The notes under the pieces were generated by a model. The model was not told the origin of the DNA and ran no database searches. It saw only the letters and a list, made by a program, of their open reading frames with translations. A stretch of DNA of 59,104 nucleotides. It comes from a virus. Taxonomy: Duplodnaviria > Caudoviricetes. The position numbers and the translations under genes were made by a program. This document shows positions 6,687-59,104 of this stretch, piece after piece (position 1 is the first letter of the stretch; each line of letters starts with the position of its first letter). The stretch lies in IMG/VR virus record IMGVR_UViG_3300036820_000020, positions 1 to 59,104 of that record. One strand, 5' to 3'.

Positions 6687-7531
6687 GTAACGTCGTTGTA
6701 GTCTCTACATACCGCAGGCCGTTCTCGGCCAAACTCTGTCTCGAAGCGTTAGCTAGGTGTCAGCGTTGGTCTGAAGACTGGGTAGCATGGGGAAGCGCGT
6801 GGGCGGATAAGATCGTCATCGGCATATCAGCCGGTAGAAACGCGGACCCTGATGTTGAAAAACAGGCGGTCAAGGTAGTAGAGAGAAATCCGGATATACC
6901 GTTTGAAATCGTTAAAGAGACCTGCGACTCGCATCCGAACAACGTGTCCAAATGGCTGTTGGACTATGGATTTAAAGGTGACAGCGTGGAAGCTGTCCTG
7001 TACGTGGAGGACGACGCGATCCTGGCCACGGACGCTTTCCACCTATGTGAATGGACGAAACAATTCAGTCAAGATAATCGGGATCGGAACGTGATTGGCT
7101 GCTGCTGCTACCACGAAACCATCCCAGCTCACTACGCCGCTGAAGGAAGATCTCCGGACGATCGTCTCATCCGCATAGGCAATGGTTTGAATACCTGCGG
7201 CGGCACGATGTTTCTTCGCGCACCTTACTTCAAAATCCTGGCTCCCAATTGGAATTGCAAACAGGTAGAACCGAAAGGATTTGACTATTCGGCTCATTAC
7301 CTGATGTATCTGAACAATCTTTTTATGATGTGGCCAGACTTGTCCAGATCTTTCAATATTGGCTTTGAACGCGGCGCGCTCTCTTATCCTATCTGGCTCA
7401 AGTACTTCGGACAGTCGATATGGACAACGACCAGACAGTCGGCCAGGTCTTGGAAAGAATTCAAGTTTGACGGCAGCCAGCCGAAGATTTTCAAAGAGCC
7501 ATGGATGGAGAAAGAACTGGGGAATATATGA
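6683..7531 (+). CDS. GT-A fold glycosyltransferase
   Basis: STYRRP...CLEAL, YVEDD (DxD-like) and SRSFNIG motifs. Confidence 0.7.
   Translation: MSNVVVVSTYRRPFSAKLCLEALARCQRWSEDWVAWGSAWADKIVIGISAGRNADPDVEKQAVKVVERNPDIPFEIVKETCDSHPNNVSKWLLDYGFKGDSVEAVLYVEDDAILATDAFHLCEWTKQFSQDNRDRNVIGCCCYHETIPAHYAAEGRSPDDRLIRIGNGLNTCGGTMFLRAPYFKILAPNWNCKQVEPKGFDYSAHYLMYLNNLFMMWPDLSRSFNIGFERGALSYPIWLKYFGQSIWTTTRQSARSWKEFKFDGSQPKIFKEPWMEKELGNI
6697..6709. promoter_or_regulatory. Palindromic site 1 TGTAG-TCT-CTACA
   Basis: In the 5' end of the GT-A gene. Confidence 0.55.
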
Positions 7532-9198: not shown

Positions 9199-12076
9199 TA
9201 TCTATACCTACTTCCGCGATCCCTGTCCGAGTTGTCCAAGGAAATCGAGAGCTATTGGAGGAGACGGTCCGCAACCAGCTCGTATCTTAGCGATTATGGA
9301 GCGTCCCGGCCAGGACGAATCCAGGCACGGCAGAGTCGCCTGCGGCAAGGCCGGCCAGGAACTAGATGACTTGTATCTTCCCCTGGCTGGTCTGGACCGG
9401 TCCGAGATCCGGGTTTGCAACACTGTCCTGTGCGGCGAGCCGAATAATAAGAAACCGACTGGCAAGGAAATAGCCGGATGCGCCCCGTTCCATATCCCGC
9501 GGGAAATTGAACGGACGAATCCGGAAGTCATATTGCTTCTGGGAGCGTCCGCCTGCTCTCTTGTAACGAACGGCAAAGGGATCGATTTAGAAGCGGCGCA
9601 CGGGATACCCCAACCTACTAGCAAAGTTGGGGATCTGTTTGGCTGGCAAGGCGTGGTTGTACCTATGTTTCACCCCGCTCAAGGGTTGCATGAAGGCCGG
9701 TGGATGCAGACGGCCATGGAAGATTGGCGGAGACTAGGTGAGTTCTTTCAATTTGGAGACGACGGCGATCCGGAGATAGAACCGTATGACTATTCACTTG
9801 CTGAAGCCGTGGATATTGCGGGTGACATTGGAGCGTCAAGCAGAATCAGTATCGACACTGAAAGTCACGACGGTAAGCCTTGGTCTATACAATACAATCA
9901 AGCGTCTGGAATGGGCCGTATCGTTCTCGTTAAAGAAGCCGAAGCGCTATACCACTTACAGCGATTGGTGCGAGAAGCGGAGGAAGTGATCTTTCATAAC
10001 GCCTCGTACGACCTCGAAGTCCTACGAAAACTCGATATCCACGTTCGTTGTTACCGTGACACGATGCAAGAGGCTTTTCACTTAGGAAACCTGCCGCAAG
10101 GTCTCAAGCCGCTGGTCTACAGGCTCTTTCGTCACACCATGACTTCGTACAAAGAGACAGTCTGGCCGGCGTCTATCCTAAATCTACAGGAATGGATGTT
10201 CGAAGCGGTCCAGATAGCCGAATCCGACCTGTCGTTTAAAGAGCAGAAGAAGAAAAGCGTCAAGGTTCATAAAGGAGAATTGGAATCTCTTCTGACCAGG
10301 CTGTTGAGACTGGCGCGGCCACATTCGGATTACGATCCGTGGGATAGACTGGACGCTTTCTGGAAAGACCCTTTGAACTCCTGGATGGTATCGCATATGG
10401 AGAACCGGATAGGTAAATACCCTGTCTTAGGTATCGCCAATTGCAAGATGAAAGACGCGATCCGGTATGCTGTCGGAGATGCCGACTGGACAGGCAGAGC
10501 GGCTGTGGAACTGGCACGGCGGCGGCAGACTGCATTTCAGATTTACGATACAGACCGGGACAACCAGGACAACCGGGACAACCGGGACGGCCAAGACGTC
10601 CAGGACACGTTAAATCAATTGAAGCTGTTCGGAGGCGTCACACTTCCAGGCAAGCCCGACCTGGATAACATCCGGCGTCTGGACGCGATGATCATTCCAC
10701 AGTTAAATAGAATGTCTCGGATAGGAATAGGAATAGACGTTCCTTACCTCCAGGATCTCTCCAGCCAATTCGAAAAGGAAATGAAAGACCTGGAGTCTCA
10801 GATCTCTTCTTATATCCCCGCCTGGGCGCTCAATCAATTCTCTTCTCAGGCCGCCGTGATCGAGGAAGAGGAAGGACTAGCTGCTCTGAACGCTTCGAGC
10901 GCGGTACAGATCCGGACATTACTCTTCGATCTGTTGAAAGTCGGGCGCGACCAGAAGCTCAAATCAACTTCCACAGGCAAAGTGTCTACCGGACGAAAGA
11001 ATTTAGACAAGGTGAGAGACGATCACCCGGTCGTCCCACTGATTCTACAGTATCGGGAAAGACAGAAGCTGAAGGAATCGTTTTGTGACTCTTTGCCTGT
11101 ACTGGCAAAGCTTCACCCTGTCTCTAGTTGTTGTCCGATATGCGAACTTCCTCATCGTGTAGCGACTACACGGCTGCACACGGAATTCACGACCACCAGG
11201 GCTATCACTGGCAGGCTGTCCAGCCGCCGTCCCAACCTCCAGCAAATTCCTATCCGGTCCACTCTGGGCTCTCGTATCCGTGCCGCTTTCGTCGCGTCGC
11301 CGGGTACGAAACTGGTATCTGTAGACTTCTCTCAGATGGAAATCAGGGATCTCGCCCATCTTGCCAACGCCTGTTCTATCTTCAAAGTCTACGAGTCCGG
11401 CGGCGATATTCATGTCAACACAGCCGTCAAAGCGTTTGGCCTTAGAGACGCTTCGCAAGTCGATAAATACCGTCACCGCCTGCCCGCCAAACGAACGAAC
11501 TTCAGCATTCAGAACGGCACGACAGAGGAAGGCTTGTACGCTCAGTTGATCGGAGACTACTGGGCGGCTGGCATCACTCCCCCCGATTGGCTTAACAAGG
11601 ACTGGTGCAAGGAATTCATCGCTTCCTGGCACCAGGCCTATCCGGAAGTCCAACCCTACTTTGACACTCAGTATTACCGGGCTCGCCGGTACGGTTTCGT
11701 ATGGGGACCTTGGGGACGGGCAAGATATATACCGCAGATCCGCTCGACGCACTTCTGGAAAGTGGAAGAGGGACTGAGAGAAGCTCAGAACTTCGCTGTC
11801 ACTAATTCTAACGCGGAACAAACGAAACTGGCGATGGCGGAATGCGAGAGCGAGTTTGAGATTGTGAGAGAGAACGGCGTCTATTGCGAGGCGCTATTGT
11901 CTATTCATGACCAGGTGATAACGGAAGTAGACGAAGCATATGCTGATTTCATAGGTTCTCGAATGACTTACATCTTTGAGCATGTGATGGACGACCGGGT
12001 AACTAAGAAACGGATGTGGCGATGTCTGATCAAGGCGGACTGCGATATCCTGGACCGCTGGCACGCCAAGGAATAA
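9185..12076 (+). CDS. polA: Family A DNA polymerase with N-terminal family-4 UDG-like domain and 3'-5' exonuclease
   Basis: UDG: CxxC, ERPG..E...G...G.AG, HPA. Exo I IDTE, Exo II HNASYD, Exo III YAVGD. Polymerase: TGRLSS..PNLQQIP, motif A DFSQMEIR, motif B RxxxKxxNF, motif C HDQ. Confidence 0.92.
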   Translation: MPLPDIYTYFRDPCPSCPRKSRAIGGDGPQPARILAIMERPGQDESRHGRVACGKAGQELDDLYLPLAGLDRSEIRVCNTVLCGEPNNKKPTGKEIAGCAPFHIPREIERTNPEVILLLGASACSLVTNGKGIDLEAAHGIPQPTSKVGDLFGWQGVVVPMFHPAQGLHEGRWMQTAMEDWRRLGEFFQFGDDGDPEIEPYDYSLAEAVDIAGDIGASSRISIDTESHDGKPWSIQYNQASGMGRIVLVKEAEALYHLQRLVREAEEVIFHNASYDLEVLRKLDIHVRCYRDTMQEAFHLGNLPQGLKPLVYRLFRHTMTSYKETVWPASILNLQEWMFEAVQIAESDLSFKEQKKKSVKVHKGELESLLTRLLRLARPHSDYDPWDRLDAFWKDPLNSWMVSHMENRIGKYPVLGIANCKMKDAIRYAVGDADWTGRAAVELARRRQTAFQIYDTDRDNQDNRDNRDGQDVQDTLNQLKLFGGVTLPGKPDLDNIRRLDAMIIPQLNRMSRIGIGIDVPYLQDLSSQFEKEMKDLESQISSYIPAWALNQFSSQAAVIEEEEGLAALNASSAVQIRTLLFDLLKVGRDQKLKSTSTGKVSTGRKNLDKVRDDHPVVPLILQYRERQKLKESFCDSLPVLAKLHPVSSCCPICELPHRVATTRLHTEFTTTRAITGRLSSRRPNLQQIPIRSTLGSRIRAAFVASPGTKLVSVDFSQMEIRDLAHLANACSIFKVYESGGDIHVNTAVKAFGLRDASQVDKYRHRLPAKRTNFSIQNGTTEEGLYAQLIGDYWAAGITPPDWLNKDWCKEFIASWHQAYPEVQPYFDTQYYRARRYGFVWGPWGRARYIPQIRSTHFWKVEEGLREAQNFAVTNSNAEQTKLAMAECESEFEIVRENGVYCEALLSIHDQVITEVDEAYADFIGSRMTYIFEHVMDDRVTKKRMWRCLIKADCDILDRWHAKE
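11158..11170. promoter_or_regulatory. Palindromic site 2 TGTAG-CGA-CTACA
   Basis: Inside polA; extends to CGTGTAG..CTACACG. Confidence 0.7.
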
Positions 12077-21173: not shown

Positions 21174-24100
21174 TTAACTGGATGGTACGGAAGTCCAGGA
21201 GATCACAAGTCCGATATTCCGCTGCCAGGAGGTATCGGCACCGTTTCCACTCGATACAATCGGTACGATCCATTGGCCGCGAGGGACCTGTGGACCGAGA
21301 GTATACGGAGATCCTACCGGCGAAGTCTGAAGGTTCTTGTAGTACGGCTGGACATTCACCGTCCCTTCAAAGTCCAGCATGACATCACCGTACTGTTTTA
21401 ACATCCGCGAGTCTTCCTGGTCGTCGGCGGGCGTAGCCACCAGACAAACGATTCCGCTCACGTCATCGCCGGTGTTGTTAGAGACGTAGTAGAGACCGCC
21501 GTTGTCGCAGCCGAGAAGAGTCAATGGATTCTCGACTCCCTCCTCTTGATATCGAATAGTCACTTGGGGGTTGTAGTAATAAGGCACCCAGGCTTTCGTC
21601 TTCATGTCATAACAGAAAGTGTGATAGGTGCTGGTCGTATCGACGTAATCGAAAAACAACTGATTGTTGACGAATTCCAGTTTCAGATACGCGGATAAAT
21701 TGAAATCGGGAGGATAAAACATCGAGGCCGTCACCGGTTCCAGATAGGAAATGTCCAACGGCTGCCCCGGCTCGCCTTCGTGAGGAAAGAGAGAGTAGAG
21801 ATCGTCGGTTAGGCGTTCAGATTGTCCGGCTGGATTGTAAGCGTAGATACCGCCGTCGGTTGAAACTAAGAAGATGTATGGCGCTTTGACTGTGAATGCC
21901 CAGGACCCGGCCAGGCCATAGGTCAAAGAGAGCTTATAAGAGGCGAACGGATTTGTTCCTCCCTTCGCCGGCTCGATACGATAGACGCCGAGAGTAGTAA
22001 AGGCGTAATCGGCTCCTTCATAATGACCACCGCCTAGCAACGGTTCTGATGGGTTTGTGACCTCGATATACCCGGCGTCAGAAGCCGAGTCAGGATTGCC
22101 TGGTTGGGTGAAATAGAGAAAGCCTGGGTTATAAGGATCGCCACAAGCCATAATGACATCATTGCCTTTGGACTCCCAGGCGAAAGCAAGCGGTTGTCCC
22201 GCGATAGTGGCTTCCGGAATTGAGAAATCGACGCCGCTATAGACGCCGATATTTTGAGCTGTATCGAGTACGGTTGTTGAGCCGGGCGGAGCGTAAAGGC
22301 TGTACGTCTGCTCGTTGATAATGATCTCCACTCCGCGTATCCAGGACTGATTGAAAGTATCTCCGGACACCCAGGTGACTCTGGTTCCTACTACGTCGCA
22401 AGTTCCTAGCCTCGGTTTATCAGTGACCGGGAAAGGGACATACTGCTGCAAGTCTAACGCCTGAGAGCCCTGGGCGAAACCAGTTGTCACGGAGTCAGCG
22501 TATACCGACGTGGCGTTAGCGACGGTCAGGATTTGTTTCCATTTCGGGATTGGGCCGCCGAATCTCTCGATATCGATCAGGTCCACTTGCGAATCCGGAC
22601 TCGCTGTAATCGATACCTGTAACTGCTGTCGGCGCGGCAGTTCTCCATTCCTGGTCTCTGGCGATACATCCGATCTCGCCCCCGTGGCCGAACTGCGGTA
22701 GCGGTACCTGTATTGAATCGGTATGCCTTCGTTGCCGTATGAGTTAAAATTAGCGTCCGGACCGAACCCGCCGCCCACCCACCAGCTTCCCCATTCGACA
22801 TTGGCGTCACCGGTAATAATGAATTGAATACCGATAGCTTTCACTTGAGACAGGTTGACGCTCGCGTCAGTACCGACGCGGACCAGATCTGAGAATTTGA
22901 ATGTCGCTTCGAACCATGTGCCGACACCAGATGGTAACTGTGAACTTCCCTGGGGAGTTCCACCGGTTGGATTGGCGATAGGGGCGACCGGGTAAGGAGA
23001 TTGTCCGACTGTCTGTTGTTCCGCCTGCGCCTCGAACGAATCGGCGATATCGGCGGTAATGCCTTGTAAAAGCGTCGGGATCGTAGACCCGGCGCCGGTT
23101 ACAATAGGCGTAAAGTCACCTTGCCTGGATATGTAGTAATAATAATTCTGAGTGAAGTCGTTCTCGCTCGCGTCCACGTCCAGGAGGAAATGGACTTCCA
23201 CGATATTGCCGGGCGTATCCGTCCAGAAAGATATATGCATGTAATCTTCAGAGATCAGAGATACGCCGGTTGTACCGGAGGCCGTCAGAGTCAAATCTGT
23301 TGACAGGCTGCCGAGAGAGACGAGACCGACACCGGACGAATAGGTAAGCGCGGACGTGTTAACTGATCCCGCGACCGCCGCGCCGCCTGTATGATTCGAT
23401 GTGAAATACGCTCTGAACCCAGGCAGGAACGTAATAGTATCGCTCGCGGATATCGTGGACGCGCTCGAACATCTAAAAGAATACGTGCCGTCCGGACCCA
23501 CAGTAACAGAGAGAACTCTGACGTACTGCGTTCCAATGTAAAGCATCTGGTTTCGGATGAGTCCCTGCTGCGGCTGGGTGACGGCGACAGTACAAAGTCC
23601 GGTAGAACCGGAATCATAGACAACCGCGGAGGCGGCCGTGCCGGCGGTTACCTGGTAGACCTGTTCGACCGTGGTCTTTTCGGTGCCTACTTCAATTCTC
23701 ATACCCAGGCCAAGCCAGCCATACCCGACAGACGAGCCTTGCAAGGCTACACAACACCAGCCGGTAGTCCCAGTGTCATAAACGGTCGCCAGCGTCGTGA
23801 TTCCCGAGGGAACACGGTCAGCCGTTGATGGCGCCCCGGCATCGCCAGCCGAAGACCATGACCCTGACGCATTTGAGTCCTGGAGGATCGTATAGCCAGG
23901 TTCGCTGAGAGCTGTTGTAGGCGCTACACCAGGTACCGCGATTCCGATATTGGCGTGAGTGATAGACGCGCCTGATACATCCGCTTTGTATTTCTGAGTT
24001 TTGTTGGAATCAAAGAGGTACAGCCAAGGCTCTGGAGACTGCGGAGGACGGTAGGGAACCATTGAAAGAGGGTTGCCGGAATAATTGGAATCGATCTGGT

Positions 24101-27945: not shown

Positions 27946-29279
27946 TCATCTATAACAAAAATCACCGTGCCGCCGCTTGTACCTTGATGTTGAACGGCTC
28001 CGCCATCCAGATATCCTACAGTATTTCCACCTGGGAATGTGCCGGGGACGCCGGCCCCTTGTACTAGCGCGCCGCCGCCCGCTGTCGAATTGAGAGCGAA
28101 GTTTGCCGATGACGAATTAACAAACGGATTCGCGGACAGACTGACAATCGACGGTATCTGTTGCGCGCTCCCTGTCAAATTACCGCTGGTGTTACCACCC
28201 GCAAAACAGGAATACAGGTAATTCGACACGTTTGCCGATGTATTGAACCCGTATCCACTGTTGCCGTAGGACAGGCAATTATGACAGGCGGACGACAGGT
28301 TTCCCGTGACTACGGAAACCAGTTTAAATCCATCGCTCGAATTACCAAACGCCGTGCAGTTGATGAAAGCCGCGTTACTGGCGCCGGTGCTATCTTGAAA
28401 GCCGATAGTGTTGTTGTACGATATGCAATCGACTAGATAAGAACTGGAAGACGAGACGCCGAACCCCGTGACATTATTGTCGTGACTTATACATCGCAAT
28501 ACAAATATAGCCTCGATAGCCGGAGAAACAGTCGTGCAACTGGCAATCGCGCATTCGATAGCGGAGCCGCTGGCAATCGCGACATTCGTGAAATTCTCGA
28601 AAAGACACTTGTAAACCGTCGCGGATGAACTGACGAATCCACGGCTGGTGGTCAGATTCGCGCCGCTCAACGCCAGATTCACGAATCTCCCGCCCGCGCC
28701 GCTAGCCAGCATTGTGAACGCGCTGATACCAGACGCCGTAAAAACCGGTTGGTTGCCGTAGTCGCCGCGCGCCGTCTGGTAGCCGATCATCGTGCTTTGA
28801 GACGTGTCGGCGGTGTTGGCCGGCATTGAAATACAGCCGCCCGAGATATTCACGGTAGCTGACGTAATCGAATACGAGGCGTACTGTACGTTGACTACGT
28901 TCCCTCCTACCATGACGTTAGAAGCGTAGCCTGGACTGGCCAGCGCGCCGCCTACGACGCCGCTGGTAGCCGTGAAAGTCCCGAGCGCGCGGTCAACCGT
29001 TACTACGGATGTGCTCGTATAACCGACGATACAGTAAAGTCCCTGGCCGGCGATGTTGATGACGTTGCCGAGCATCGTGTTTAGAAAGCTGCTACTCGAA
29101 TTGGTCAGTGATGTAGTGCCTACGGCGGAAAGGGAAGAGGAAAATGAAACAGTTCCCTGATGGGTACCGTACGTCATATCGACGCCGGTAGCGCCTTTAT
29201 TGGAAGTATCGAATCCGCCGCCGTTCGAATCGCTCCCGGTGGCTTCTACTTCCCAGGCTGTAGCCGCGGTTAATGCCAT
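27942..29279 (-). CDS. Right-handed beta-helix (tailspike/pectate lyase-like) protein
   Basis: Repeated C.S..N..GF units (NCTAFGNSSDGF, NCLSYGNSGYGF); C-terminal GYLDGGAVQ. Confidence 0.7.
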
Positions 29280-29630: not shown

Positions 29631-30395
29631 TTATTGAACCTCCTCAAGATAGCTGACCGTCTGGCTGCCGGTAGACGTGATACCATAGACCGCCGCGCTC
29701 GACCGGATACGCATCGGATAGCCCGCGATACCGACAAGCATCTGACCGGTGGTGGCGGTGACACCGGAGCCGCCGAGAAAAATATTGGTTGTGCCATTGT
29801 TGACAACAACCACGGATATCCGGCTACTGTTGGACGCAATGATTTCCGTGGCTGACGATCCGACGCTTACCTGACCTGTGTTAAAAGTGCTGGCGGTTCC
29901 TTGTACAATTCTCTGGCTGTCGGCAATATTACCAGCGCCAATTGTAACGCTGTTGCCCGCGATCTCAGTGAGATTGACGGGCTGTGTTGTAGTGCCTACA
30001 GGATCGGTACGGACAGGATTGCTGAGAGTGCCGATCTCCGTTCCGCTGTTGTTACGCAGGTTGACATGAACGGCGCGATTCGGAGTGACTCTCTCAGTCC
30101 CTTGCTGGCCGGAGGAGAGAGCGGTAGCGGAGTCGTTATAGACACCGCCGCCGGGGACGAACTGGGAGACACCGGCAGTCCAAGAGGCTTCGTCGGTAAC
30201 GGATAGGCCGCCGCCGCCGCTGCCGGCTTTCACATTGACACAGAGATTGCGCGCGTCATCGAGCGCGACAACGGCCAGGACGCCGCTGGCGGGAGTATCG
30301 GACGGCGCGACCACGCCGGACATGGGTACGCCGGGAGACTGGCCGACGACAAACGGATTCTCGTCTTTTAAAGACGTGCCGCCGGAGATACTCAT
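29631..30395 (-). CDS. Virion structural protein
   Basis: S/T/G-rich; C-terminal R.SVVVVNNGTTNIFLGGSGVT beta-domain. Confidence 0.6.
   Translation of the reverse strand: MSISGGTSLKDENPFVVGQSPGVPMSGVVAPSDTPASGVLAVVALDDARNLCVNVKAGSGGGGLSVTDEASWTAGVSQFVPGGGVYNDSATALSSGQQGTERVTPNRAVHVNLRNNSGTEIGTLSNPVRTDPVGTTTQPVNLTEIAGNSVTIGAGNIADSQRIVQGTASTFNTGQVSVGSSATEIIASNSSRISVVVVNNGTTNIFLGGSGVTATTGQMLVGIAGYPMRIRSSAAVYGITSTGSQTVSYLEEVQ
29988..30000. promoter_or_regulatory. Palindromic site 4 TGTAG-TGC-CTACA
   Basis: Inside a virion gene. Confidence 0.6.
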
Positions 30396-35115: not shown

Positions 35116-35128
35116 TGTAGCGGCTACA
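35116..35128. promoter_or_regulatory. Palindromic site 5 TGTAG-CGG-CTACA
   Basis: About 45 bp upstream of the capsid-operon -35 box. Confidence 0.75.
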
Positions 35129-41884: not shown

Positions 41885-41947
41885 AACAGAGACCAGTCTA
41901 CCAGATCGTCAATCAAGATACCAGGAGCATTATTCTAGCCATTTTGG

Positions 41948-45227: not shown

Positions 45228-45624
45228 GCACCATTCTACGCTCAGACGTGAGACGCTGGCGCATCTCGGTTAAAACCTGTTGGAATTGAGGCGACCACGG
45301 AGCGACACCGAGAGAGATCGCGAGCGCGGCTTCGTGGTCTGTACGGGCCTGGTACTCTTCCGGAGACTCGGCGAGATGGAATTCATAAGGCTCGCCGGAT
45401 GTTTTAGACTGTTTAGACTGTTTAGATTGCTCGCGTGTAGTGCCTACACGCTCGCCGGTAGCCAGACTAGCCAGACTGGACTGATTGGCCTGATCGTCAC
45501 CTTGTGAAAGTGGTATCGATGGCGACAGTCTTTCTAAAGCGTCCGCTATCCGTCTCAATTCAAACGTATTGCGGTCGATTGAGGCGACCAGCCCGAGAGG
45601 AAGCTCAAACCAGGACATAATCAA
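45103..45624 (-). CDS. Hypothetical protein
   Basis: ELRRIADALERL helical motif; in operon. Confidence 0.6.
   Translation of the reverse strand: MIMSWFELPLGLVASIDRNTFELRRIADALERLSPSIPLSQGDDQANQSSLASLATGERVGTTREQSKQSKQSKTSGEPYEFHLAESPEEYQARTDHEAALAISLGVAPWSPQFQQVLTEMRQRLTSERRMVLDEEGNQVWQEPFTASEAEDIIRQAFQLAKAEANTREPARQ
45436..45448. promoter_or_regulatory. Palindromic site 6 TGTAG-TGC-CTACA
   Basis: Extends to 8-bp arms GCGTGTAG..CTACACGC. Confidence 0.75.
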
Positions 45625-48521: not shown

Positions 48522-48534
48522 TGTAGGCGCTACA
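48522..48534. promoter_or_regulatory. Palindromic site 7 TGTAG-GCG-CTACA
   Basis: Intergenic; CCGTGTAGGCGCTACA is identical to site 9 and to site 10 (inverted). Confidence 0.8.
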
Positions 48535-50956: not shown

Positions 50957-50991
50957 ATCAAACAGTCCCCTTTTGAGAAGGAGAAAAAACA

Positions 50992-51222
50992 ATGCAACAC
51001 GACGGAAGCTGCGATAAAACGTGCGGTCACGCGCTCGACACCATAATCGTTCCCTACACTCAAGCCGTCCAACAGCTTTTGGACCACGATCCTCGCGTGG
51101 TCGAATACGAAGAAATTGACAGCGAATGGCTGGAAGTTGTCTATGCTTACCGCCGGACGGTGGCCGCGATCTACTACGCCGCAGCCGCGCAGTTGCGGAT
51201 AAAAGAGTTGGCTGGACGCTAA
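50992..51222 (+). CDS. Small hypothetical protein
   Basis: AAGGAG RBS. Confidence 0.65.
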   Translation: MQHDGSCDKTCGHALDTIIVPYTQAVQQLLDHDPRVVEYEEIDSEWLEVVYAYRRTVAAIYYAAAAQLRIKELAGR

Positions 51223-51291
51223 AAGGAACGCGCGGGGCTCCGCGGCAATCGAGGCGCGAGTCAGTGACGCCCAGGCCAAGGAGACCCGCGT

Positions 51292-51355
51292 CCAGAAGTC
51301 CAGAAGTCAGAAGTCCAGAAGTCAGAAGTCCAGAAGTCAGAAGTCCAGAAGTCCA
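51292..51355. repeat. AGAAGTC(C) heptad/octad array
   Basis: About 8 units; inverted copies at about 51474-51495. Confidence 0.85.
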
Positions 51356-51371
51356 GGACCCTTTTCCCATG

Positions 51372-51414
51372 CACCCCGAGGAGCCTGACGGCTCTCGGGG
51401 TGTTTCTGTTTTTA
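51372..51414 (+). terminator. Intrinsic terminator
   Basis: CACCCCGAG..GAGC...GCTC.TCGGGGTG hairpin followed by TTTCTGTTTTT. Confidence 0.65.
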
Positions 51415-51453
51415 CAATGAAAAAGACCCTACACGCCGCTTCCAATCGCGCCG

Positions 51454-51466
51454 TGTAGGGTCTACA
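51454..51466. promoter_or_regulatory. Palindromic site 8 TGTAG-GGT-CTACA
   Basis: Intergenic; extra half-site at about 51424-51435. Confidence 0.75.
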
Positions 51467-51496
51467 TCGCTACGAACTTCAGACTTCTGACTTCTG

Positions 51497-52579
51497 TTAG
51501 TTCCGGGAGGCCATTTCTGGCACATTCAGGCCAATCTCGGCAAAGTCATCTACCTGAATCCCTGGCTGGGATCGGAGATAGCTTGTACTAACTGGCAGTT
51601 TTTCCGATTCCTCCAGGATCAATTCCAGAGCCGAAGTTTTCAGCCTGTCGCCGCTTCCAAACAGCGCTGATTCCGCCCGGCCATCGCCTTTCGTAGTCCT
51701 GGCGTGGTCAGTGTAGTTTGTAATCGCGTTTAGCAGGCACAATGGCGTGCCGGCTTGGACCGGGAACGCGCTGTTGTCATTCGATTCATAAAGCGCCGAG
51801 ATCGCGGCAAGTATGTTATCTCGCCTGGCCGAATGGACTTCTTTCGATTCATCTTTGGCTTGCTTGCGAATGGGAAACAATCGATCGAGGATAGCCGCGT
51901 AGCTGTCGTGAGTCATCCGCCGGCTAGCCAGAAAGTTCAGCTTTTGCTCGACTGTCTCTGTGTCTTTTCGAAAAGCTTGCAAAGCCTGTTGGGCGTCGGC
52001 GATTTTGGCGCCGGCGTTAACCGTATGCCGAATTTTGAATTGCGCGGAAGCGTTCTCGCTGAGCGCGACATTCAAAGTGTTTTGGCAAACAACTCTTTCG
52101 ATACAAGTCCGGAGCTGATAGCTCATAGATCCGTCATGCCCCGTGGCGAACAGTAGATACGGTTTGCTTTCGTCTTCGCCGACGTGAATCCGCAGTCCCA
52201 GGTCCGCCAAACCCCATACGACTTCGCCTTTCCCAAGTGCTCCCGCGGTTTCGTAGTGGGCGCCATCCGTGGCTGTCATCAGCTTATCGATCAATTCAAA
52301 TCCGGATGCGTGATTGATAATACGGTAGTCTTTGCCAACTGTGCCAAGGAATTCCGCGGCGCCGGCATTCTTCATAATTTTGTCCTGATGGTTCCAGCGG
52401 AACACTCCCCAAGCTTCAACTGGCCGATTCAGACTGTCTTTGAGCTGTGACTTGAACACGTCGAAGTCCAGGCCTCCGGCGGCCAAGATTTCCTGCCAGG
52501 TCATATAGCGGCCAGTGACCTGTCCGAGTGAATGCCAAGCCGCCTGCCGTCCGATATAAGTGTTGATGTTGTGTGCCAT
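51497..52579 (-). CDS. DUF932 family (phage/plasmid TIGR03299-like) protein
   Basis: AWHSLG, YETAGAL..G, HDGS, RVVCQNTL, IRHT and NAITNY.DH motifs. Confidence 0.88.
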   Translation of the reverse strand: MAHNINTYIGRQAAWHSLGQVTGRYMTWQEILAAGGLDFDVFKSQLKDSLNRPVEAWGVFRWNHQDKIMKNAGAAEFLGTVGKDYRIINHASGFELIDKLMTATDGAHYETAGALGKGEVVWGLADLGLRIHVGEDESKPYLLFATGHDGSMSYQLRTCIERVVCQNTLNVALSENASAQFKIRHTVNAGAKIADAQQALQAFRKDTETVEQKLNFLASRRMTHDSYAAILDRLFPIRKQAKDESKEVHSARRDNILAAISALYESNDNSAFPVQAGTPLCLLNAITNYTDHARTTKGDGRAESALFGSGDRLKTSALELILEESEKLPVSTSYLRSQPGIQVDDFAEIGLNVPEMASRN

Positions 52580-53086: not shown

Positions 53087-53869
53087 CTACTGCATCCGCA
53101 TCATCTCGGTGAATTCGTCCAGGTCTTTATCCCATTCCCGCTGGTCTACCGCTGTCTGGCTCAACATGTTTTTCAGCCGGTATTCCGGCGGGATTGGTTT
53201 TGTAGGCTCTCCAAAGAATCCACGGATTTTGCCGTCTACTCTTTTGACATTCCGCGGCTCGTAAAAGGTAGCTAACGCCTCCGCGGCCCTGTCACGGCTG
53301 GACATTCCAGGCATTCCCGGCAGATACGGCACAATACCGCGTAAAGAGACGTAGTGGAATCCAAACTGGCGCGTGTACTGTTCCATTCTCCAATCAAACT
53401 CGCCGCCGTAGGGATAAAAACGCTTCCAGTTTGGACAGGTCTCGCCCGCCATATCTTTCAAGGTACGGGCGAAATTGCGCGCATATCCGCGTGGCACAAC
53501 GAAAATCCCAGCACAGCACGAACAGGCTGCCTGCCACAAATCAGTCTCATAGTCGCGCCCAATCACTTCCAATCCGCGGCCTGGTTTTTGTCCAATCGCG
53601 GCGCCTTCGATGCCCCGGTTGCCGGCACTATTCCAAACTTTCAGACCAGCGTACTCGATTCCTCCATTCTTTTGTGGCCGTCTCCGGCAGCCGCAGGAGT
53701 AAACGGAAGCGTAGTAAAGCTGCCGGTAGTTCACTTCTATCTCTTGGCCACACTCACAGAGGCACACAGCTCCTTCCCGCCAGGAATCAGGGTCTACTGA
53801 CCTGGAAATTCTTAAAAGAGTGCCTTTGACTATCTGTTTGTCTTTGAAAACATTAGACTTAGTTAGCAC
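53087..53869 (-). CDS. Hypothetical protein with homing-endonuclease-like CxCxCG...SCGC motifs
   Basis: AGGAG RBS; CLCECG and SCGC motifs; no HNH or AP2 core recognised. Confidence 0.6.
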   Translation of the reverse strand: MLTKSNVFKDKQIVKGTLLRISRSVDPDSWREGAVCLCECGQEIEVNYRQLYYASVYSCGCRRRPQKNGGIEYAGLKVWNSAGNRGIEGAAIGQKPGRGLEVIGRDYETDLWQAACSCCAGIFVVPRGYARNFARTLKDMAGETCPNWKRFYPYGGEFDWRMEQYTRQFGFHYVSLRGIVPYLPGMPGMSSRDRAAEALATFYEPRNVKRVDGKIRGFFGEPTKPIPPEYRLKNMLSQTAVDQREWDKDLDEFTEMMRMQ

Positions 53870-53970
53870 AAATCAACTCCTAAAACAGCCGCACAATTAA
53901 TTTTATATCACGTGACGCCCCTTATATAGAACACAAAAAAGCTTTATAAGATAAGAGGTCTAAGACCATA

Positions 53971-54015
53971 TGGACTGTGGACTGTGGACTGTGGACTGTG
54001 GACTGTGGACTGTGG
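53971..54015. repeat. (TGGACTG)x6 heptamer array
   Basis: Read directly from the sequence. Confidence 0.9.
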
Positions 54016-54110
54016 ATCATATGGTCCTACAGGTCCATATGGACTACGCGCGCGCGTGTATGTTCGCTATATGGGGCGTCACGCTATATATAAAATATCC
54101 GATTTATCCG

Positions 54111-54123
54111 TGTAGGCGCTACA
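54111..54123. promoter_or_regulatory. Palindromic site 9 TGTAG-GCG-CTACA
   Basis: About 100 bp upstream of the HTH-parB promoter. Confidence 0.8.
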
Positions 54124-54130
54124 TGCCAAC

Positions 54131-54196
54131 GGAAGTCAGAAGTCGGAAGTCAGAAGTCGGAAGTCAGAAGTCGGAAGTCGGAAGTCGGAAGTCAGA
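54131..54196. repeat. (RGAAGTC)x9 heptamer array
   Basis: Lies between the palindrome at 54111 and the promoter at 54225; same unit as the 51.3-kb array. Confidence 0.9.
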
Positions 54197-54224
54197 AAAC
54201 GCCAAATCAGAAAATTATTGATTA

Positions 54225-54253
54225 TTGACTTCACCGGCATCTATTGTTACGCT
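54225..54253 (+). promoter_or_regulatory. Promoter of the HTH-parB-replication operon
   Basis: TTGACT-N17-TACGCT with an extended TG; ATG at 54263. Confidence 0.55.
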
Positions 54254-54262
54254 GGTGTGCTA

Positions 54263-54619
54263 ATGCCGGAAAATCTACCACCGGGACCACCGCCGGAAAT
54301 CCCGCCAGCGTCAAAAATCCCCCGGTCGCCGCTTTTTCCCAATCGCGGCGCCGGCACATCTGGAAAGAAACCGGTCCTATACCCCGATATCAGTTTTCAG
54401 TTGCTAGGCCAGGCGGTCGGCATAGATCCGACCTACGCTGGCAGGATTATGAACGGCAAAGTCCGCCCGTCGATGCAAGTAGCGGAACGGTTGGCCGCGG
54501 TGATGGGATGGACGGTAGACCAGGTGGCCGCGTTATACCACAGCCAAAAAACCGAGGCACTCAAAAGAGTCAAAAGAGTCAAAAGCGTCAAAAGAGTCAA
54601 AAGCATCCGAATGAGTTAA
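54263..54619 (+). CDS. XRE/Cro-like HTH transcriptional regulator
   Basis: LGQAVGIDPTYAGRIMNGKVRPSMQVAERLAAVMG. Confidence 0.8.
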   Translation: MPENLPPGPPPEIPPASKIPRSPLFPNRGAGTSGKKPVLYPDISFQLLGQAVGIDPTYAGRIMNGKVRPSMQVAERLAAVMGWTVDQVAALYHSQKTEALKRVKRVKSVKRVKSIRMS

Positions 54620-54621
54620 AA

Positions 54622-55887
54622 ATGGCAAGAGTAGAAACCAACGTCGAAACCGGGAGCGAAAGTGAAAGCGATCTGCTTCTACTTCACTCTCCGCTTACAG
54701 ACCGGATCGTTTTCGTTCGTCCAGCCCGTCTGAAGATTGAAAAACTCAACCACGCCAGGCCAGGACCAACTCCACCGCAAGAGCAATCCAGACTCTCTTC
54801 ACTAGCCCAGTCTATGAGGGAGAATGGCCAGTTGACTCCTGTACTAGTCACTGAGTATAGCGGCAGCGGCGGTAACGGCTCCTGGGACTACGCTTTGATC
54901 GACGGTAGGCGCCGGCGTGACGCCGCGCTCCTGATCGAACGCGAAGACAGCATGGAATTCCCATTAGCCTGTGTGGTCGCGTCCGGTCTAGACGACCCTT
55001 TGAAAGCTGGCATCCACGCCAACAAACACGCCCCTCTGACCCCTTTGCAATTCGCCTATCTGTGTAAGCAAGTCAGAAAAGTACACGGATGGCATGGCAC
55101 AAAGGAAGTCGCGGAGTACCTTGGGGTGTCTAGAGCGCAGGTTAGTCAACACGACAAGTTGCTTACCAGACCGGAAGGCATGACCAAGTCCGCCTATGAA
55201 GACCTGTTGTCCAAGGTGGGAAGTAGGCGATGGGGTAGCGAAGCGGCTTTCTATACTCTTACGCACGTAGAACCAGTAAAAGCCGATCAGGTGATAGCCA
55301 GAGCGGAGGAATTGGCCACTGAAGAAACCGGGGAAACCGAGGAATTTTCTGAAGTGCCCGAAGAATCGTCAGAATCGCCCCAGGAAGCATCGGAATACGA
55401 AGAGAGCCAGTCGGATACCTCTACCCCTCAACAAATCGATCCTGGAGAGTCTGAGACGCGGCAAACAGGCAAAGAGAAACGGGTGAGGAGTGACGGGAAG
55501 CGTGACAAAGACATCAAAACACCGGAATGGATGAAAGAACAGAAGCAGAAATCGAAAGAGAGAGTAGCGGCCAAAAAAGCGGCTAAAACGACAGCTAAAG
55601 AGACAGCCAGACCGTCCGCGTCTGTTGGACGCAGGCATGTTGAAAAAGCGGCCAGGGAAGCCGCGGCTCTCAAATCGACGGCGCCGCAATCGCAATCCAG
55701 AGGCGTTCCGGATCTCCTTCGCCTTTTGGAATTACTAAGTGGAGATGGATATCCGAAACTGATGAGGGAGTTTGCGGATGCGCTGCGGACTTCCTGGTGG
55801 ACAGGCCAAGTCGATGATGAACATATCGTGTGGCGGTGGGAGGCTATCGCTTCCGATGTCAGGTTCAGGTACGAGCGGGAAGGTTAG
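54622..55887 (+). CDS. ParB-family (KorB/Spo0J-like) protein with HTH
   Basis: LAQSMRENGQLTPVLV, LIDGRRR (GxxR CTP-binding patch), HAN, and HTH TKEVAEYLGVSRAQVSQH. Confidence 0.85.
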   Translation: MARVETNVETGSESESDLLLLHSPLTDRIVFVRPARLKIEKLNHARPGPTPPQEQSRLSSLAQSMRENGQLTPVLVTEYSGSGGNGSWDYALIDGRRRRDAALLIEREDSMEFPLACVVASGLDDPLKAGIHANKHAPLTPLQFAYLCKQVRKVHGWHGTKEVAEYLGVSRAQVSQHDKLLTRPEGMTKSAYEDLLSKVGSRRWGSEAAFYTLTHVEPVKADQVIARAEELATEETGETEEFSEVPEESSESPQEASEYEESQSDTSTPQQIDPGESETRQTGKEKRVRSDGKRDKDIKTPEWMKEQKQKSKERVAAKKAAKTTAKETARPSASVGRRHVEKAAREAAALKSTAPQSQSRGVPDLLRLLELLSGDGYPKLMREFADALRTSWWTGQVDDEHIVWRWEAIASDVRFRYEREG

Positions 55888-55946: not shown

Positions 55947-57275
55947 ATGGCTCAAAGTGATACATTTTACAACGTGCCTATCGCCGCGGCGCCACTAACT
56001 GATTCTGATTCTTCGTCTTATTCTAAATTGAGACCGTTCCTGGTATCTTCCACACGGTCTCCTCTGGCGGACCCTAAAACACCGATCCATAGACTAGCCT
56101 GCGCCATCCAGTCCTACTTATACTTTCCAGATCCAAGTCCGTTATATGCGGTATGTGGGACTGTAATAGCAAATAGTCTCCGTGGTTATCCGGTATGGCT
56201 CATGCTGATCGGACCGCCGGAATCGGGTAAGACGGAACTATTAAAACCGTTATTGGGAATAGACGGCTGCGTCGAGTGCGGGGATATCTCGGGCAAAGGC
56301 GCGTTGCTATCGGGAACGCCGGCCTCCCAACGAACCCAGGATTCTACAGGTGGACTGCTCAACACGATAGACAAGCAGAGAGGCGTCCTGGTCATGCTGG
56401 ACTTTGCCAGGACAGTCCTGGCCTCGGATATGAGGGAGATGAGATCGACCCTCGGAGCGATCGGAATGCTCCATGACCAGCATTACAAAAGATCAATTGG
56501 AGCCGACGGCGGACGGTCTATCACTTTCGATGGCAAGTTAGGCTGGATAGCGGCTTCGACAGACGCTATAGACCACCCGGATAACCACCAGGCTAATTCA
56601 GAAATGGGAGACAGGTGTCTCTATTATCGCTATCCTGTCTCGACCGGGTATCACGAGATATCGAGCGCCTTGGATAATCCCGACAGCAGTTATAAGACTC
56701 AAAAGATCCAAGGGCTATTCAAGACCTGGCAAGAAGAGATCGGGTTGGATTGGGAGCATCTGGCGCCCCCGCGGACGCTTGAAGAAGATGAGAAACGGCG
56801 GGTATCGGCGCTCGCGCAGTTTTGCGCGAGAGCCAGGTCAGCCGTTTACCGGGATCGCTGGAGACAGGAGGTAGCGGGGATATCAAGGGCCGCGCTGGGG
56901 CCGAGAATAGCTAACTCGCTGGCTCAATTGCTTCGCGGCATGGAACACATCGGATGTACGCAAGAGGAAATCTGGAAGGTGTTGTGTCACACCGCTATAG
57001 ATTCTATACCCGCTGTCAGAGCGCACATTCTAAAACTGTTACAGGAAGACAGACAGACATTGCAGGAAGTCGCCGACAAGATACAGATAGCATTGCCCGC
57101 GGCCAAAAGAACGATAGAGGATTTGCGTATCCACGACCTTGTAGCGCCTACACGGCCTAACGGTCAGTCTGATGGTCAGTCTGATGGTCAGACGGGCGGT
57201 CAGACCTGGACACTCAGTGAGAAAGGGAAAGGCCTGTTGGATTTTGGATGGCAGGGATCTAAAATAGAGACTTGA
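55947..57275 (+). CDS. AAA+/MCM-like replication ATPase with C-terminal winged HTH
   Basis: PVWLMLIGPPESGKTE, GGLL, VMLDF and DRCL motifs; C-terminal TLQEVADKI...AKRTIEDL. Confidence 0.75.
   Translation: MAQSDTFYNVPIAAAPLTDSDSSSYSKLRPFLVSSTRSPLADPKTPIHRLACAIQSYLYFPDPSPLYAVCGTVIANSLRGYPVWLMLIGPPESGKTELLKPLLGIDGCVECGDISGKGALLSGTPASQRTQDSTGGLLNTIDKQRGVLVMLDFARTVLASDMREMRSTLGAIGMLHDQHYKRSIGADGGRSITFDGKLGWIAASTDAIDHPDNHQANSEMGDRCLYYRYPVSTGYHEISSALDNPDSSYKTQKIQGLFKTWQEEIGLDWEHLAPPRTLEEDEKRRVSALAQFCARARSAVYRDRWRQEVAGISRAALGPRIANSLAQLLRGMEHIGCTQEEIWKVLCHTAIDSIPAVRAHILKLLQEDRQTLQEVADKIQIALPAAKRTIEDLRIHDLVAPTRPNGQSDGQSDGQTGGQTWTLSEKGKGLLDFGWQGSKIET
57140..57152. promoter_or_regulatory. Palindromic site 10 TGTAG-CGC-CTACA
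   Basis: In the 3' end of the ATPase gene; exact 16-bp inverse of sites 7 and 9. Confidence 0.75.
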
Positions 57276-57307
57276 CAAATATAGATTTAACAGGTATTGT
57301 TGAACAC

Positions 57308-57562
57308 GTGATTGCGGCAATAGTTCAAGCAGGATATCAATGGTCGTGGTCGTGGTCGCGGTCGGGGTCGCGGTCGGGGTCGTGGTCGTGGCCGGGGTCT
57401 CGGTCGTTGTCTTGGTTGTGGTCGCGGTCGGGATCGGGGTCAGGGTCGCGGTCGCAGTCGTGGTCGTGGTCGTGGTCGGGGTCGGAGTCACGGTCGTGGT
57501 CGTGGTCAGGGTCGGGTTCGAAGTTAAGCAAAGGAAAACAAAAATGGCAAACGAAAACGTAA
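57308..57562 (+). CDS. Ser-X repeat peptide, unit 0 (MIAAIVQAGYQ-WSWSWSRSG...)
   Basis: Start is GTG 57308 or TTG 57272; divergent leader; Ser at alternating positions. Confidence 0.6.
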   Translation: MIAAIVQAGYQWSWSWSRSGSRSGSWSWPGSRSLSWLWSRSGSGSGSRSQSWSWSWSGSESRSWSWSGSGSKLSKGKQKWQTKT

Positions 57563-57828
57563 AAACAAGCTTTTGGATCGTGGGCAAATCCTATCTGATC
57601 CGGACTGTAACAATGATCGACACGGGTATCCTCGTCTCGATAGACGAACACGAAATAGTCTTATCCGATGCCGCTTGGATTGCCGACACTGGCAGATTTA
57701 GCGCCGCTCTGCACTCCTCTGACTTTCTCGAAGTCGAACCGTTCCCGGACGGGACGCGGGTGGCTATTGGCCGCGGAAGTGTTATTGACGCAGTACAGAT
57801 TCCCACGGCGCCGCGAAAATTAAAATGA
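57544..57828 (+). CDS. Small Sm/LSm-like beta-barrel protein (DUF6948-like)
   Basis: AAGGA RBS; VGKSYLIRTVTMIDTG.LV......VL.DAAWIADTGRF...EVEP......GRGSVIDA. The fold is inferred from the strand pattern. Confidence 0.65.
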   Translation: MANENVKTSFWIVGKSYLIRTVTMIDTGILVSIDEHEIVLSDAAWIADTGRFSAALHSSDFLEVEPFPDGTRVAIGRGSVIDAVQIPTAPRKLK

Positions 57829-58037
57829 ACGCTGCCGTCTTACTGACTGTATACGAACAGTCGAGTTGGTCGCGATCGCGGTTGGGTTAGCGGTCGTGGT
57901 CGCGGTCGTGGTCGCGGTCGGGGTGGTGGGTGTGGTCGGGGTCGCGGTCTGGGTCGCGGTCGGGGTTGGGGTCGCGGTCTGGGTCGCGGTCGGGGTTGGG
58001 GTCGCGGTCACAGTCGGGGTCACGGTCGAATTGGTGA
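57825..58037 (+). pseudogene. Ser-X repeat peptide, unit 1, with premature TAG at 57888
   Basis: MNAAVLLTVYEQSSWSRSRLG*RSWSR...SNW*. The frame stays open to the conserved SNW-TGA. Confidence 0.7.
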
Positions 58038-58041
58038 GGTC

Positions 58042-58296
58042 ATGGCCACTGTCTTACTAAGCATATACGAACAGTCGAGTTGGTCGGGGTCGAGGTCGGG
58101 GTCGGGGGCGGGGTCGGGGTCGCGGGCGGGGTCGCGGTCGCGGTCGCGGGCGGGGTCGCGGTCGAGGTCGTGGTCGTGGTCATGGTTGTGGTCACGGTCG
58201 TGGTCGTGGTCGCGGTCGGGGTCGTGGTCACGGTCGGGGTCGCGGTCGGGGTCGCGGTCGCGGTCGGGGTCGTGGTCGGGGTCGCGGTCAAATTAG
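58042..58296 (+). CDS. Ser-X repeat peptide, unit 2
   Basis: GAGG RBS; leader MATVLLSIYEQSSW. Confidence 0.7.
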   Translation: MATVLLSIYEQSSWSGSRSGSGAGSGSRAGSRSRSRAGSRSRSWSWSWLWSRSWSWSRSGSWSRSGSRSGSRSRSGSWSGSRSN

Positions 58297-58347
58297 TAAG
58301 GTCGCGGTCGGGGTCGTGGTCGGGGTCACGGTCGAATTGGTGAGGTC

Positions 58348-58536
58348 ATGGCCGTTGTCTTACTAATCGTGTACGAACAGTCGAGTTGGTCGGGGTCGCG
58401 GTCAGGGTCTCGGTGGCGTTCGCGGTCGGGGCCGCGGCCGTGGCCGTGGTCTGGGTCGCGGTCACGGTTGTGGCCGTGGCCGTGGTCGCGGTCGGGGTCG
58501 TGGTCACGGTCGCGGTCGGGGTCGCTCGGAAACTGA
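58348..58536 (+). CDS. Ser-X repeat peptide, unit 3
   Basis: GAGG RBS; leader MAVVLLIVYEQSSW. Confidence 0.7.
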   Translation: MAVVLLIVYEQSSWSGSRSGSRWRSRSGPRPWPWSGSRSRLWPWPWSRSGSWSRSRSGSLGN

Positions 58537-58537
58537 G

Positions 58538-58801
58538 ATGAACGCCGTATTACTAGCCCTATACGAACAGTCGAGTTGGTCGCGATCGCGGTTGGGGACG
58601 CGGTCGTGGTCGTGGTTGTGGTCGTGGTCGCGGTTGCGGCCTTGGCCGGGGTCGTGTTCGCGGTCGGGACCGGGGTTATGGTCGTGGTCGTGGGTGGGGT
58701 CGGGGCCGCGGTCTGGGTCGTGGTCGGGGTCGTGTTCGCTGTCGCGGTCGGGGTCTCGGTCGCGGTCGGGGTCGTGGTCGGGGTCACGGTCGAATTGGTG
58801 A
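58538..58801 (+). CDS. Ser-X repeat peptide, unit 4
   Basis: TGA-G-ATG coupling; leader MNAVLLALYEQSSW. Confidence 0.7.
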   Translation: MNAVLLALYEQSSWSRSRLGTRSWSWLWSWSRLRPWPGSCSRSGPGLWSWSWVGSGPRSGSWSGSCSLSRSGSRSRSGSWSGSRSNW

Positions 58802-58805
58802 GGTC

Positions 58806-59030: not shown

Positions 59031-59104
59031 GCGCAATCTTTACATCCTTGTTTCCCTCCGATCTCGGCTTGCCGCCTAAATTCACGTCTTATCGGCGCCA
59101 TCAA
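58978..59104. repeat. Direct terminal repeat, copy 2
   Basis: Identical to 1-127. Confidence 0.95.

Follow-up and report, generated by a model that had tools for sequence, protein, structure and literature searches.

A phage parB locus and a dispersed palindrome

The window analyzed here, one complete IMG/VR virus record of 59,104 bp (IMGVR_UViG_3300036820_000020; G000 in our genome comparisons), is the genome of an uncultured, soil-type tailed phage in which a gene for a ParB-family protein lies directly downstream of a gene for a small XRE-type helix-turn-helix (HTH) protein, and in which ten exact copies of a 13-bp palindrome, TGTAGNNNCTACA (TGTAG-N3-CTACA), are scattered over the chromosome. 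The original prediction for this DNA had linked the palindromes to the ParB protein as a putative network of clamp-loading sites. The core of the locus consists of three features, and both genes lie where that prediction had placed them.

54225..54253, + strand: promoter-like TTGACT-17-TACGCT, read by eye and not called by a consensus scan; it ends 10 nt before the XRE ATG
54263..54619, + strand: small XRE-type HTH protein, 118 amino acids (aa) long, N-terminus rich in Pro and Arg (Pfam: HTH_31, 28.9 bits; HTH_3, 24.6 bits; each above cut-off)
54622..55887, + strand: ParB-family protein of 421 aa, with a ParB-CTPase-fold N-domain, an HTH, a disordered linker and a helical C-domain

All ten palindrome coordinates given in the original prediction are exact matches. 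The copies, two one-mismatch copies and one promoter-like site are located as follows.

6697..6709: palindrome copy TGTAGTCTCTACA, 14 nt into gene 6683-7531
11158..11170: palindrome copy inside polA (9185-12076), at a position kept in relatives, where it encodes H-V-E-S-T
23916..23928: palindrome copy inside a 1077-aa gene (21174-24407, minus strand)
29988..30000: palindrome copy inside gene 29631-30395 (minus strand)
35116..35128: palindrome copy TGTAGCGGCTACA, 46 bp upstream of the -35 element in the promoter-like site of the capsid operon
35070-35041, minus strand: capsid-operon promoter-like site, 11/12 consensus matches
45436..45448: palindrome copy between genes 44292-45227 and 45661-46191 (both minus strand)
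48522..48534: palindrome copy, intergenic, downstream of gene 47296-48387
51454..51466: palindrome copy, intergenic, between gene 50942-51445 and the DUF932 gene 51497-52579 (both minus strand)
54111..54123: palindrome copy between divergent genes, 152 bp before the XRE start and 511 bp before that of parB
57140..57152: palindrome copy close to the MCM-like ATPase gene's 3' end
29112..29124: one-mismatch copy TGTAGTGCCTACG
53201..53213: one-mismatch copy TGTAGGCTCTCCA; gene 53087-53869 (minus strand) has its 3' end close by

The palindrome is strongly enriched. Dinucleotide shuffles of the genome (n=100) contained a mean of 0.01 copies and a maximum of 1, and codon-preserving shuffles (n=300), in which the proteins and the codon usage of each gene were kept, contained a mean of 0.83 and a maximum of 3, versus the 10 observed; the enrichment predicted over a codon-preserving background is therefore present. 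The gene calls used for this shuffle, and for counts of sites inside and outside genes, came from a rough heuristic combining open reading frames (ORFs) with conservation, so those counts are approximate: five of the ten sites lie fully inside genes and five are intergenic. Half of the sites (5/10) fall at 45.4-57.2 kb, the region said to be densest.

Among spacers of 0-11 bases, only the 3-base spacer occurs between half-sites, and the core in the window genome is TGTAG-N3-CTACA with a G+C-rich centre. The consensus for the group of related phages is TGTAGA(G/C)TCTACA, a perfect 13-mer that is the usual form in relatives. Three copies (48522, 54111 and 57140, the last on the other strand) share the 16-mer CCGTGTAGGCGCTACA, as reported. 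The CG flanks described as frequent are present on the left in 5/10 copies and on the right in 4/10, but on both sides in only 2/10, and are thus less regular than had been claimed. HIP1 (GCGATCGC) is not enriched (4 copies), and NtcA, CRP and LexA boxes would not fit the TGTA-N5-TACA spacing.

Short tandem repeats flank several of the palindromes (54125-54195, 51293-51360, 51474-51496, 48478-48521 and 54562-54604). Their units are GGAAGTCAGAAGTC, CAGAAGTC together with its complement, GTCAAAAGTCTGACGTGACCG (twice) and AGTCAAAAG (inside the XRE 3' end), and they may be functional or products of slippage. It is because of the length of such repeats in between that the site at 54111 is ~95 bp away from the promoter.

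Conservation of the sites among related phages

Five viral contigs encode ParB proteins 32-41% identical to that of the window and contain 4, 6, 6, 5 and 1 palindrome copies, with none for the reversed control. A capsid-based search gave 42 loci, all of the related contigs being metagenome records, and the larger records were analyzed whole (numbered G; single loci are numbered L below). When all 5+5 inverted repeats with spacers of 0-9 were counted de novo, TGTAG-N3-CTACA or its core GTAGA-N-TCTAC was the top inverted repeat in G000-G004, G012 (21 copies), G014 (11) and G020 (20), and the related phages contain 4-21 palindrome copies. G005 has a looser TGTAS-N3-STACA (7 copies), and G013 has no TGTAG copies and ten of CGTAGA(G/C)TCTACG.

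The dispersed network is thus kept in sequence among relatives, and partly also in position, with site positions recurring across phages whose capsids are 63-93% identical. The polA copy lies at the same codons in 9 genomes, encoding H-V-E-S-T; at this position G019 polA reads H-V-D-D-T. Other recurring positions are the gap between the divergent gene and XRE-parB (in most relatives a copy lies 345-600 bp ahead of parB), the 3' end of the same divergent gene, a place within the scaffold gene, and places next to the homologues of 26361-27485 and of 16591-17217. At or just past the 3' end of the 53087-53869 homologue, G001, G002 and G003 have an exact site and G005 one with a single mismatch. 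The neighbourhood of the site at 35116 is the same in G002, G020 and G005.

Over eight near-complete genomes (~87% coding, ~13% non-coding), 55/89 sites are fully inside called genes and 34/89 are not; given the small non-coding fraction, the latter number indicates intergenic enrichment, though most sites are intragenic. The gaps between sites vary less than expected from random placement in 8/8 genomes (P 0.015-0.11 each, in genomes that are related and not independent). A polarity of the centre base with respect to gene direction was considered and set aside: by hand count, the centre base is G on the sense strand at 16/20 sites in G012, but at only 6/10 in G013.

To relate the sites to parB, copies of NGTAG-N3-CTACN were counted in each genome, with the following result.

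ParB-bearing genomes, copies: G000 11, G001 4, G002 7, G003 6, G004 10, G005 3
ParB-bearing genomes, copies (continued): G012 23, G013 12, G014 12, G020 20, G019 2

At least three sites are therefore present in 10/11 genomes carrying this ParB. A ParB_N-fold gene is absent from five relatives of at least 91% completeness (G015, G016, G018, G021 and G022); these contain 0, 0, 0, 1 and 0 copies, and the de novo inverted-repeat count found no other enriched palindrome in them. The motif is thus not kept in relatives lacking ParB; its retention there was among the outcomes that the original prediction had named as refuting its claim. These ParB-less phages share the structural genes that house many of the sites in ParB-bearing phages, and the absence of the sites from shared genes indicates that the sites exist only where the module exists. 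G016 keeps the XRE orthologue at the same position before the helicase, and G018 keeps the MCM-like ATPase; in both, ParB and the sites are absent.

The tally did not include the fragments G006-G011 (29-69% complete, without the ParB region), of which 5/6 carry 2-6 TGTAG sites and G008 only 2 CGTAG-type sites, nor G017 (76% complete) and G024 (80%; capsid 27% identical), both of which have no ParB match and no sites. One further genome, G023 (L147-L149), encodes at ~41300-42900 on the minus strand a different ParB_N-fold protein in a 359-aa frame (PF02195 24.9 bits, under cut-off). Its GGTCC/GGACC repeats were considered as a dispersed palindrome and rejected, being one local coding repeat.

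The ParB-family protein

Three lines of evidence bear out the assignment of ORF 54622-55887 to the ParB family. Against phrog_1033 (ParB-like partition protein) the ORF scores E 2.3e-18. A profile built on 29 homologues matches solved ParB, Spo0J and Noc chains at E 5e-15 to 1e-12 (the Noc chains, at E 9e-13 to 2.5e-12, are among the best matches), in an alignment that spans GxxRxxA (here DGRRRRDAA), the box III Asn/Arg and the HTH. An AlphaFold2 model (predicted local distance difference test, pLDDT, 81.6) retrieves ParB, Noc and KorB with Foldseek at probability 1.0. The same profile matches KorB chains at E 1.6e-5 (8qa8) and 0.28 (1r71) and, judged in this way, the phage protein is nearer to chromosomal ParB and Noc than to KorB.

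The residues expected of the fold are conserved. N134 is invariant in the 29 homologues, G95, R97, R98, A101, A102 and R136 are almost so, and these phage motif residues align to GERRxRA and ENLQR of solved ParBs. The recognition helix of the HTH, GVSRAQVSQHDKLL, can be aligned with its counterparts in H. pylori Spo0J and B. subtilis ParB, and the HTH helices (160-167 and 171-181) are modeled with pLDDT >90.

The original prediction that ParB has no ParA partner held up. No PF13614 or PF01656 match was obtained at E 0.1 in the complete genome (positive controls, 14/14 genomes), and the neighbouring P-loop protein is MCM-like; a ParA-like role for that protein was rejected, since it has an MCM-like AAA+ fold with a winged helix and no ParA-type fold. 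The ParA-interaction motif (L/F/I)G(K/R)G(L/F/I), as defined in PMC12704722, is absent from the ParB N-terminus (MARVETNVET...). Classical partition is therefore not the role of this protein.

The family comprises 175 clusters at E <=1e-30 and 2,165 at E <=1e-10 among 1.84 billion representatives. Neither GenBank phages (tblastn) nor 185,579 species genomes gave a match to the phage ParB; a single-protein scan with the ParB of G012, and another with that of G013, each matched only the query itself, and a search with a narrower family alignment added one new locus, L156. A phage ParB that activates a T-dioxygenase (PMC13229309) was also considered as a model and rejected: it has no obvious DNA-binding domain, and no dioxygenase was found among the 29 different window proteins, a subset of the ORFs, scanned with Pfam.

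Comparison with known ParB-type systems

Plasmid RK2 offers the nearest known parallel. It carries twelve 13-bp OB palindromes, TTTAGC(G/C)GCTAAA, on ~60 kb, and these are kept in sequence and position in R751 (PMC13768133). Its ParB-family protein KorB is a CTP (cytidine triphosphate) clamp that by sliding reaches promoters as far as 1.5 kb away, where KorA or TrbA, both small HTH proteins, lock it in place (PMC13768133, PMC11790492). Both KorB and the phage protein have a ParB-family CTPase-fold N-domain and an HTH, and in both systems ~10-20 dispersed 13-bp palindromes with a G/C centre occupy a replicon of ~60 kb, are conserved among relatives and lie at variable distances upstream of promoters, with a small HTH protein encoded alongside. 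OB shares 9/13 positions with TGTAGA(G/C)TCTACA, and the site at 35116 (TGTAGCGGCTACA) differs from it at two symmetric positions, just as had been noted (PMC13768133).

The two systems differ in that the phage replicon is a tailed-phage genome with terminal repeats and without ParA/IncC, that the phage ParB lacks a ParA-interaction motif and is no closer to KorB than to chromosomal ParB, and that most of the phage sites are intragenic. Its partner is unrelated to KorA by sequence: the XRE protein gave no match to KorA, and its best matches of solved structure are generic XRE and SinR types at E 1e-4 to 0.01. Of the proposal that the phage encodes a KorA/KorB-like pair, the ParB fold, the site network and the small upstream HTH gene stand; a KorA match is lacking, and the ParB is nearer to chromosomal ParB and Noc.

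Noc of Bacillus, a partner-less ParB paralogue, loads at many scattered palindromic sites (NBS), as the phage protein, likewise without a partner, would do. Noc is cellular and tethers DNA to the membrane via an N-terminal amphipathic helix (PMC8429893); nothing points to tethering in the phage ParB, for which no search was made. VirB (Shigella pINV) and BisD (ICEclc) are ParB-fold regulators on mobile elements that use a palindromic loading site and act at a distance, BisD together with a promoter-bound partner (PMC13768133); they control few promoters, in contrast to the genome-wide array of the phage.

The linear plasmid-prophage N15 provides a viral comparison, with several separated inverted-repeat centromere sites for SopB, a ParB-family protein. 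N15 also encodes the SopA ATPase and exists as a plasmid prophage, whereas the window phage has neither ParA nor integrase, and its ParB lacks a relative in the species genomes searched.

Which protein reads the site

We propose that the phage's own ParB recognizes the 13-bp palindrome as its specific DNA site. ParB dimers would dock on the palindrome copies through their HTH, and docked ParB would then close as a nucleotide-dependent clamp and slide onto flanking DNA, like KorB, Noc, VirB and BisD. With the ten sites spread more regularly than by chance, loaded clamps would have much of the 59-kb chromosome within their reach. The XRE protein encoded just upstream would be the working partner of ParB. 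The site upstream of the XRE-parB promoter may serve autoregulation, as a minimum, and the site 46 bp upstream of the capsid-operon promoter may serve late-gene control. We infer ParB as the binder, its use of nucleotide, its sliding and its effect on transcription from the sequence comparisons given here, and we lean modestly toward the view that the palindromes are KorB/OB-like loading sites for a ParB with clamp-like action.

The covariation of sites with the ParB recognition helix points in this direction. The helix starts with S-R-A in 9/9 genomes with TGTAG sites, and also in G005. In G013, which has CGTAG sites, it starts with S-V-A, and in G019 with S-T-A, where two CGTAG-N3-CTACG copies remain together with a decayed CGTAGA half-site, CGTAGACGATACG, at the conserved polA position; the L156 helix starts with S-P-A and its five sites have mixed C/T outer bases. 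The expected covariation of motif and ParB HTH was thus found in part: helix and outer base change together in G013 and G019, but this is probably a single event, and G004 deviates.

The main rival possibility, which we regard as unlikely, is that the palindrome is the operator of the XRE-type repressor and that ParB acts in replication or DNA organization, or is recruited by XRE. In each of the motif-bearing genomes examined, the gene immediately before parB is that for XRE; a 13-bp palindrome whose half-sites are ~9 bp apart would suit an HTH dimer, and one copy lies upstream of the XRE protein's own promoter. Moreover, the motif change in G013 is accompanied by a change of Arg/Lys to Asn at the matching residue of the XRE helix, the only genome in which that residue changes. 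However, G016 has its XRE orthologue in the usual place but neither ParB nor any enriched palindrome, and the G019 XRE protein keeps the Arg, yet its few sites are CGTAG and not TGTAG. The first residues of the XRE recognition helix also vary (TY, DY, SH) among phages sharing the identical 13-mer. Finally, ~60% of sites are intragenic, and the palindrome, 9 to ~270 bp upstream of the XRE-parB -35 element, does not overlap the core promoter, an arrangement unusual for a simple repressor. A prediction of the ParB-XRE complex scored 0.00 and 0.00 against a mark of 0.32, in runs without controls, and we drew no verdict from it. The comparative evidence, a matter of few independent events, leans towards ParB as the reader.

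Several observations weigh against ParB as a clamp loading at these sites. Every genome with the motif encodes XRE along with ParB, so that co-occurrence by itself does not tell the two apart, and their separation comes down to one lineage (G016/G017) and one probable evolutionary event (G013/G019). G004 keeps S-R-A though half of its sites have a non-T outer base on one side, and several residues of the ParB helix differ between G000 and G012 while the motif is unchanged. G019 has XRE, ParB and the ATPase but only 2 sites, with no alternative dispersed motif found. G023 has no dispersed palindrome, and its ParB_N-fold protein is not matched by the ParB profile; the ParB_N fold alone therefore does not predict such a network. 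The window ParB itself falls below curated cut-offs (Pfam ParB_N PF02195, 20.1 bits versus 26.3; TIGR00180, 45.2 versus 58.45). In addition, Ala stands in this clade (HAN) where an acidic residue should precede the box III Asn, more distant relatives having E-N. In B. subtilis ParB this Glu is needed for CTP hydrolysis, so nucleotide turnover by the phage protein may be weak.

The XRE-parB operon and the origin-like region

Two further features adjoin the XRE-parB pair.

53901..54093: 33-nt imperfect inverted repeat (arms 53901-53933 and 54061-54093, 127 nt apart), just upstream of the site at 54111
55965..57275, + strand: MCM-like AAA+ ATPase with a C-terminal winged helix, the next gene of the operon

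The XRE gene precedes parB directly in every ParB-bearing genome or locus that covers the region, often overlapping the parB start, and is its constant upstream partner, and the TTGACT and TAnnnT of the promoter recur in relatives (TTGACT-17-TAnnnT). At seven loci (L005, L006, L007, L008, L009, L028 and L029) the XRE frame extends past the parB start codon by some tens of bases, and the conserved XRE tail (..KSRN..) is the other frame of the conserved ParB N-terminus MARVET. This overrun of the XRE frame into parB suggests that the two genes may be translationally coupled.

The 55965-57275 protein was unmatched in PHROGs and gave only weak, sub-threshold HTH-type matches in Pfam and NCBIfam. 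Its model (predicted template modeling score, pTM, 0.79) matches MCM5, MCM4 and MCM2 with Foldseek at E 3e-7, and the product is assigned as a replication protein. The inverted-repeat region contains six copies of GGACTGT and a CGCGCGCG core, and relatives have long inverted repeats at the corresponding intergenic place; this region could be a replication origin.

These neighbours raise a further alternative, in which the sites are read by ParB but serve replication or DNA handling, as loading or anchoring points for the MCM-like helicase or as the basis of a compacting or shielding coat, with no control of transcription. The conserved XRE-parB-MCM-like gene order beside a long origin-like inverted repeat would fit such a role, as would the even spread and mostly intragenic position of the sites. 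We nonetheless consider it decidedly improbable: G018 has the MCM-like gene without sites, G014 has the ATPase gene inverted relative to parB, and the intergenic enrichment and the sites upstream of promoter-like elements fit regulation.

It is highly improbable that the motif is unrelated to phage proteins and is a site for a host factor, a hairpin in RNA or something left behind by restriction or methylation pressure. Each copy can fold as a hairpin of 5-8 bp with a 3-nt loop, and one was called terminator-like on the + strand. However, the folding is weak (mean minimum free energy about -5.5 kcal/mol), the stem keeps its sequence and shows no compensatory changes, the form most frequent in relatives has a centre of only 1 nt, copies occur in both gene orientations, relatives with the structural genes but without the ParB module have none, the motif changes along with the phage's own ParB lineage, and restriction pressure would deplete, not enrich, a site.

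Genome and setting of the phage

The window genome has a direct terminal repeat of 127 bp. Besides the genes already described, it encodes the following proteins.

50-1663: XPD-type helicase
9185-12076: family A DNA polymerase (polA)

A Sak4-like ATPase and an ERCC4 nuclease are also encoded, as are the large terminase, portal, scaffold and major capsid proteins and sugar- and sulfo-transferases. No PF00589 (tyrosine integrase) match was obtained at E 0.1 in the complete genome (positive controls, 14/14 genomes). In G014 (L120-L122), tyrosine-integrase-like ORFs, apparently in two pieces, adjoin the XRE-parB module at record positions 57450-58591, so some members of the group may be temperate. 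The closest cultured capsids are those of Tunturiibacter (Acidobacteriota) phages, at an identity of 28%, which makes any guess at the host a weak one.

The polymerase ORF is 963 aa long; matching ORFs in most relatives are ~485-575 aa and align to the C-terminal half, and in G012 the polymerase-homologous parts are split over two ORFs. The 51497-52579 gene (minus strand) encodes a DUF932 protein (E 2e-46; phrog_1221) that, among the relatives examined, is present only in G004; on conjugative elements, genes of this family are common beside those for ParB-like proteins. The final 1.8 kb ahead of the terminal repeat (57300-59100) consists of 12- and 18-nt periodic repeats in large families (D1 and D3), and the ORFs within it are low-complexity, on both strands.

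Discussion

CTP clamps of the ParB type are familiar from the partition of chromosomes and plasmids, and a few of them (KorB, VirB, BisD and Noc) are known as regulators. Phage proteins with an orphan ParB fold are listed in a survey from 2025, in which the word "palindrome" has no occurrences (PMC12704722). Our full-text literature search, with supplementary files outside its scope, found no description of such ParB site networks in phages.

Returning to the proposal that the palindromes load the phage ParB as a clamp, we can sketch, tentatively and as a picture that we think more likely wrong than right, what such a system might do. A virulent-looking lineage of soil or peat phages would run a plasmid-style, ParA-less ParB clamp network, in which a two-gene module writes loading sites for itself and maintains them at intervals of a few kb, in structural and replication genes alike, to the point of fixing H-V-E-S-T in the polymerase. 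The clamp would cover the chromosome after injection and set the timing of early and late transcription, or would shield or organize the DNA. Where the module is exchanged the sites would vanish, and where the ParB helix is changed the site would change. The module of a small HTH protein and ParB would, in such a network, be placed beside the replication origin and the MCM-like helicase. The function of the network may be regulation, coating or a role in replication.

The group contains natural controls for these possibilities, namely relatives without the module and relatives in which an altered helix is paired with an altered site. The network itself makes testable the question of what a sliding clamp does on a phage chromosome, be it the timing of transcription, protection, compaction or replication. 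If the proposal is true, a conserved, genome-wide network of sites for a partner-less ParB in a lytic-looking phage would extend the clamp mechanism to viral infection.

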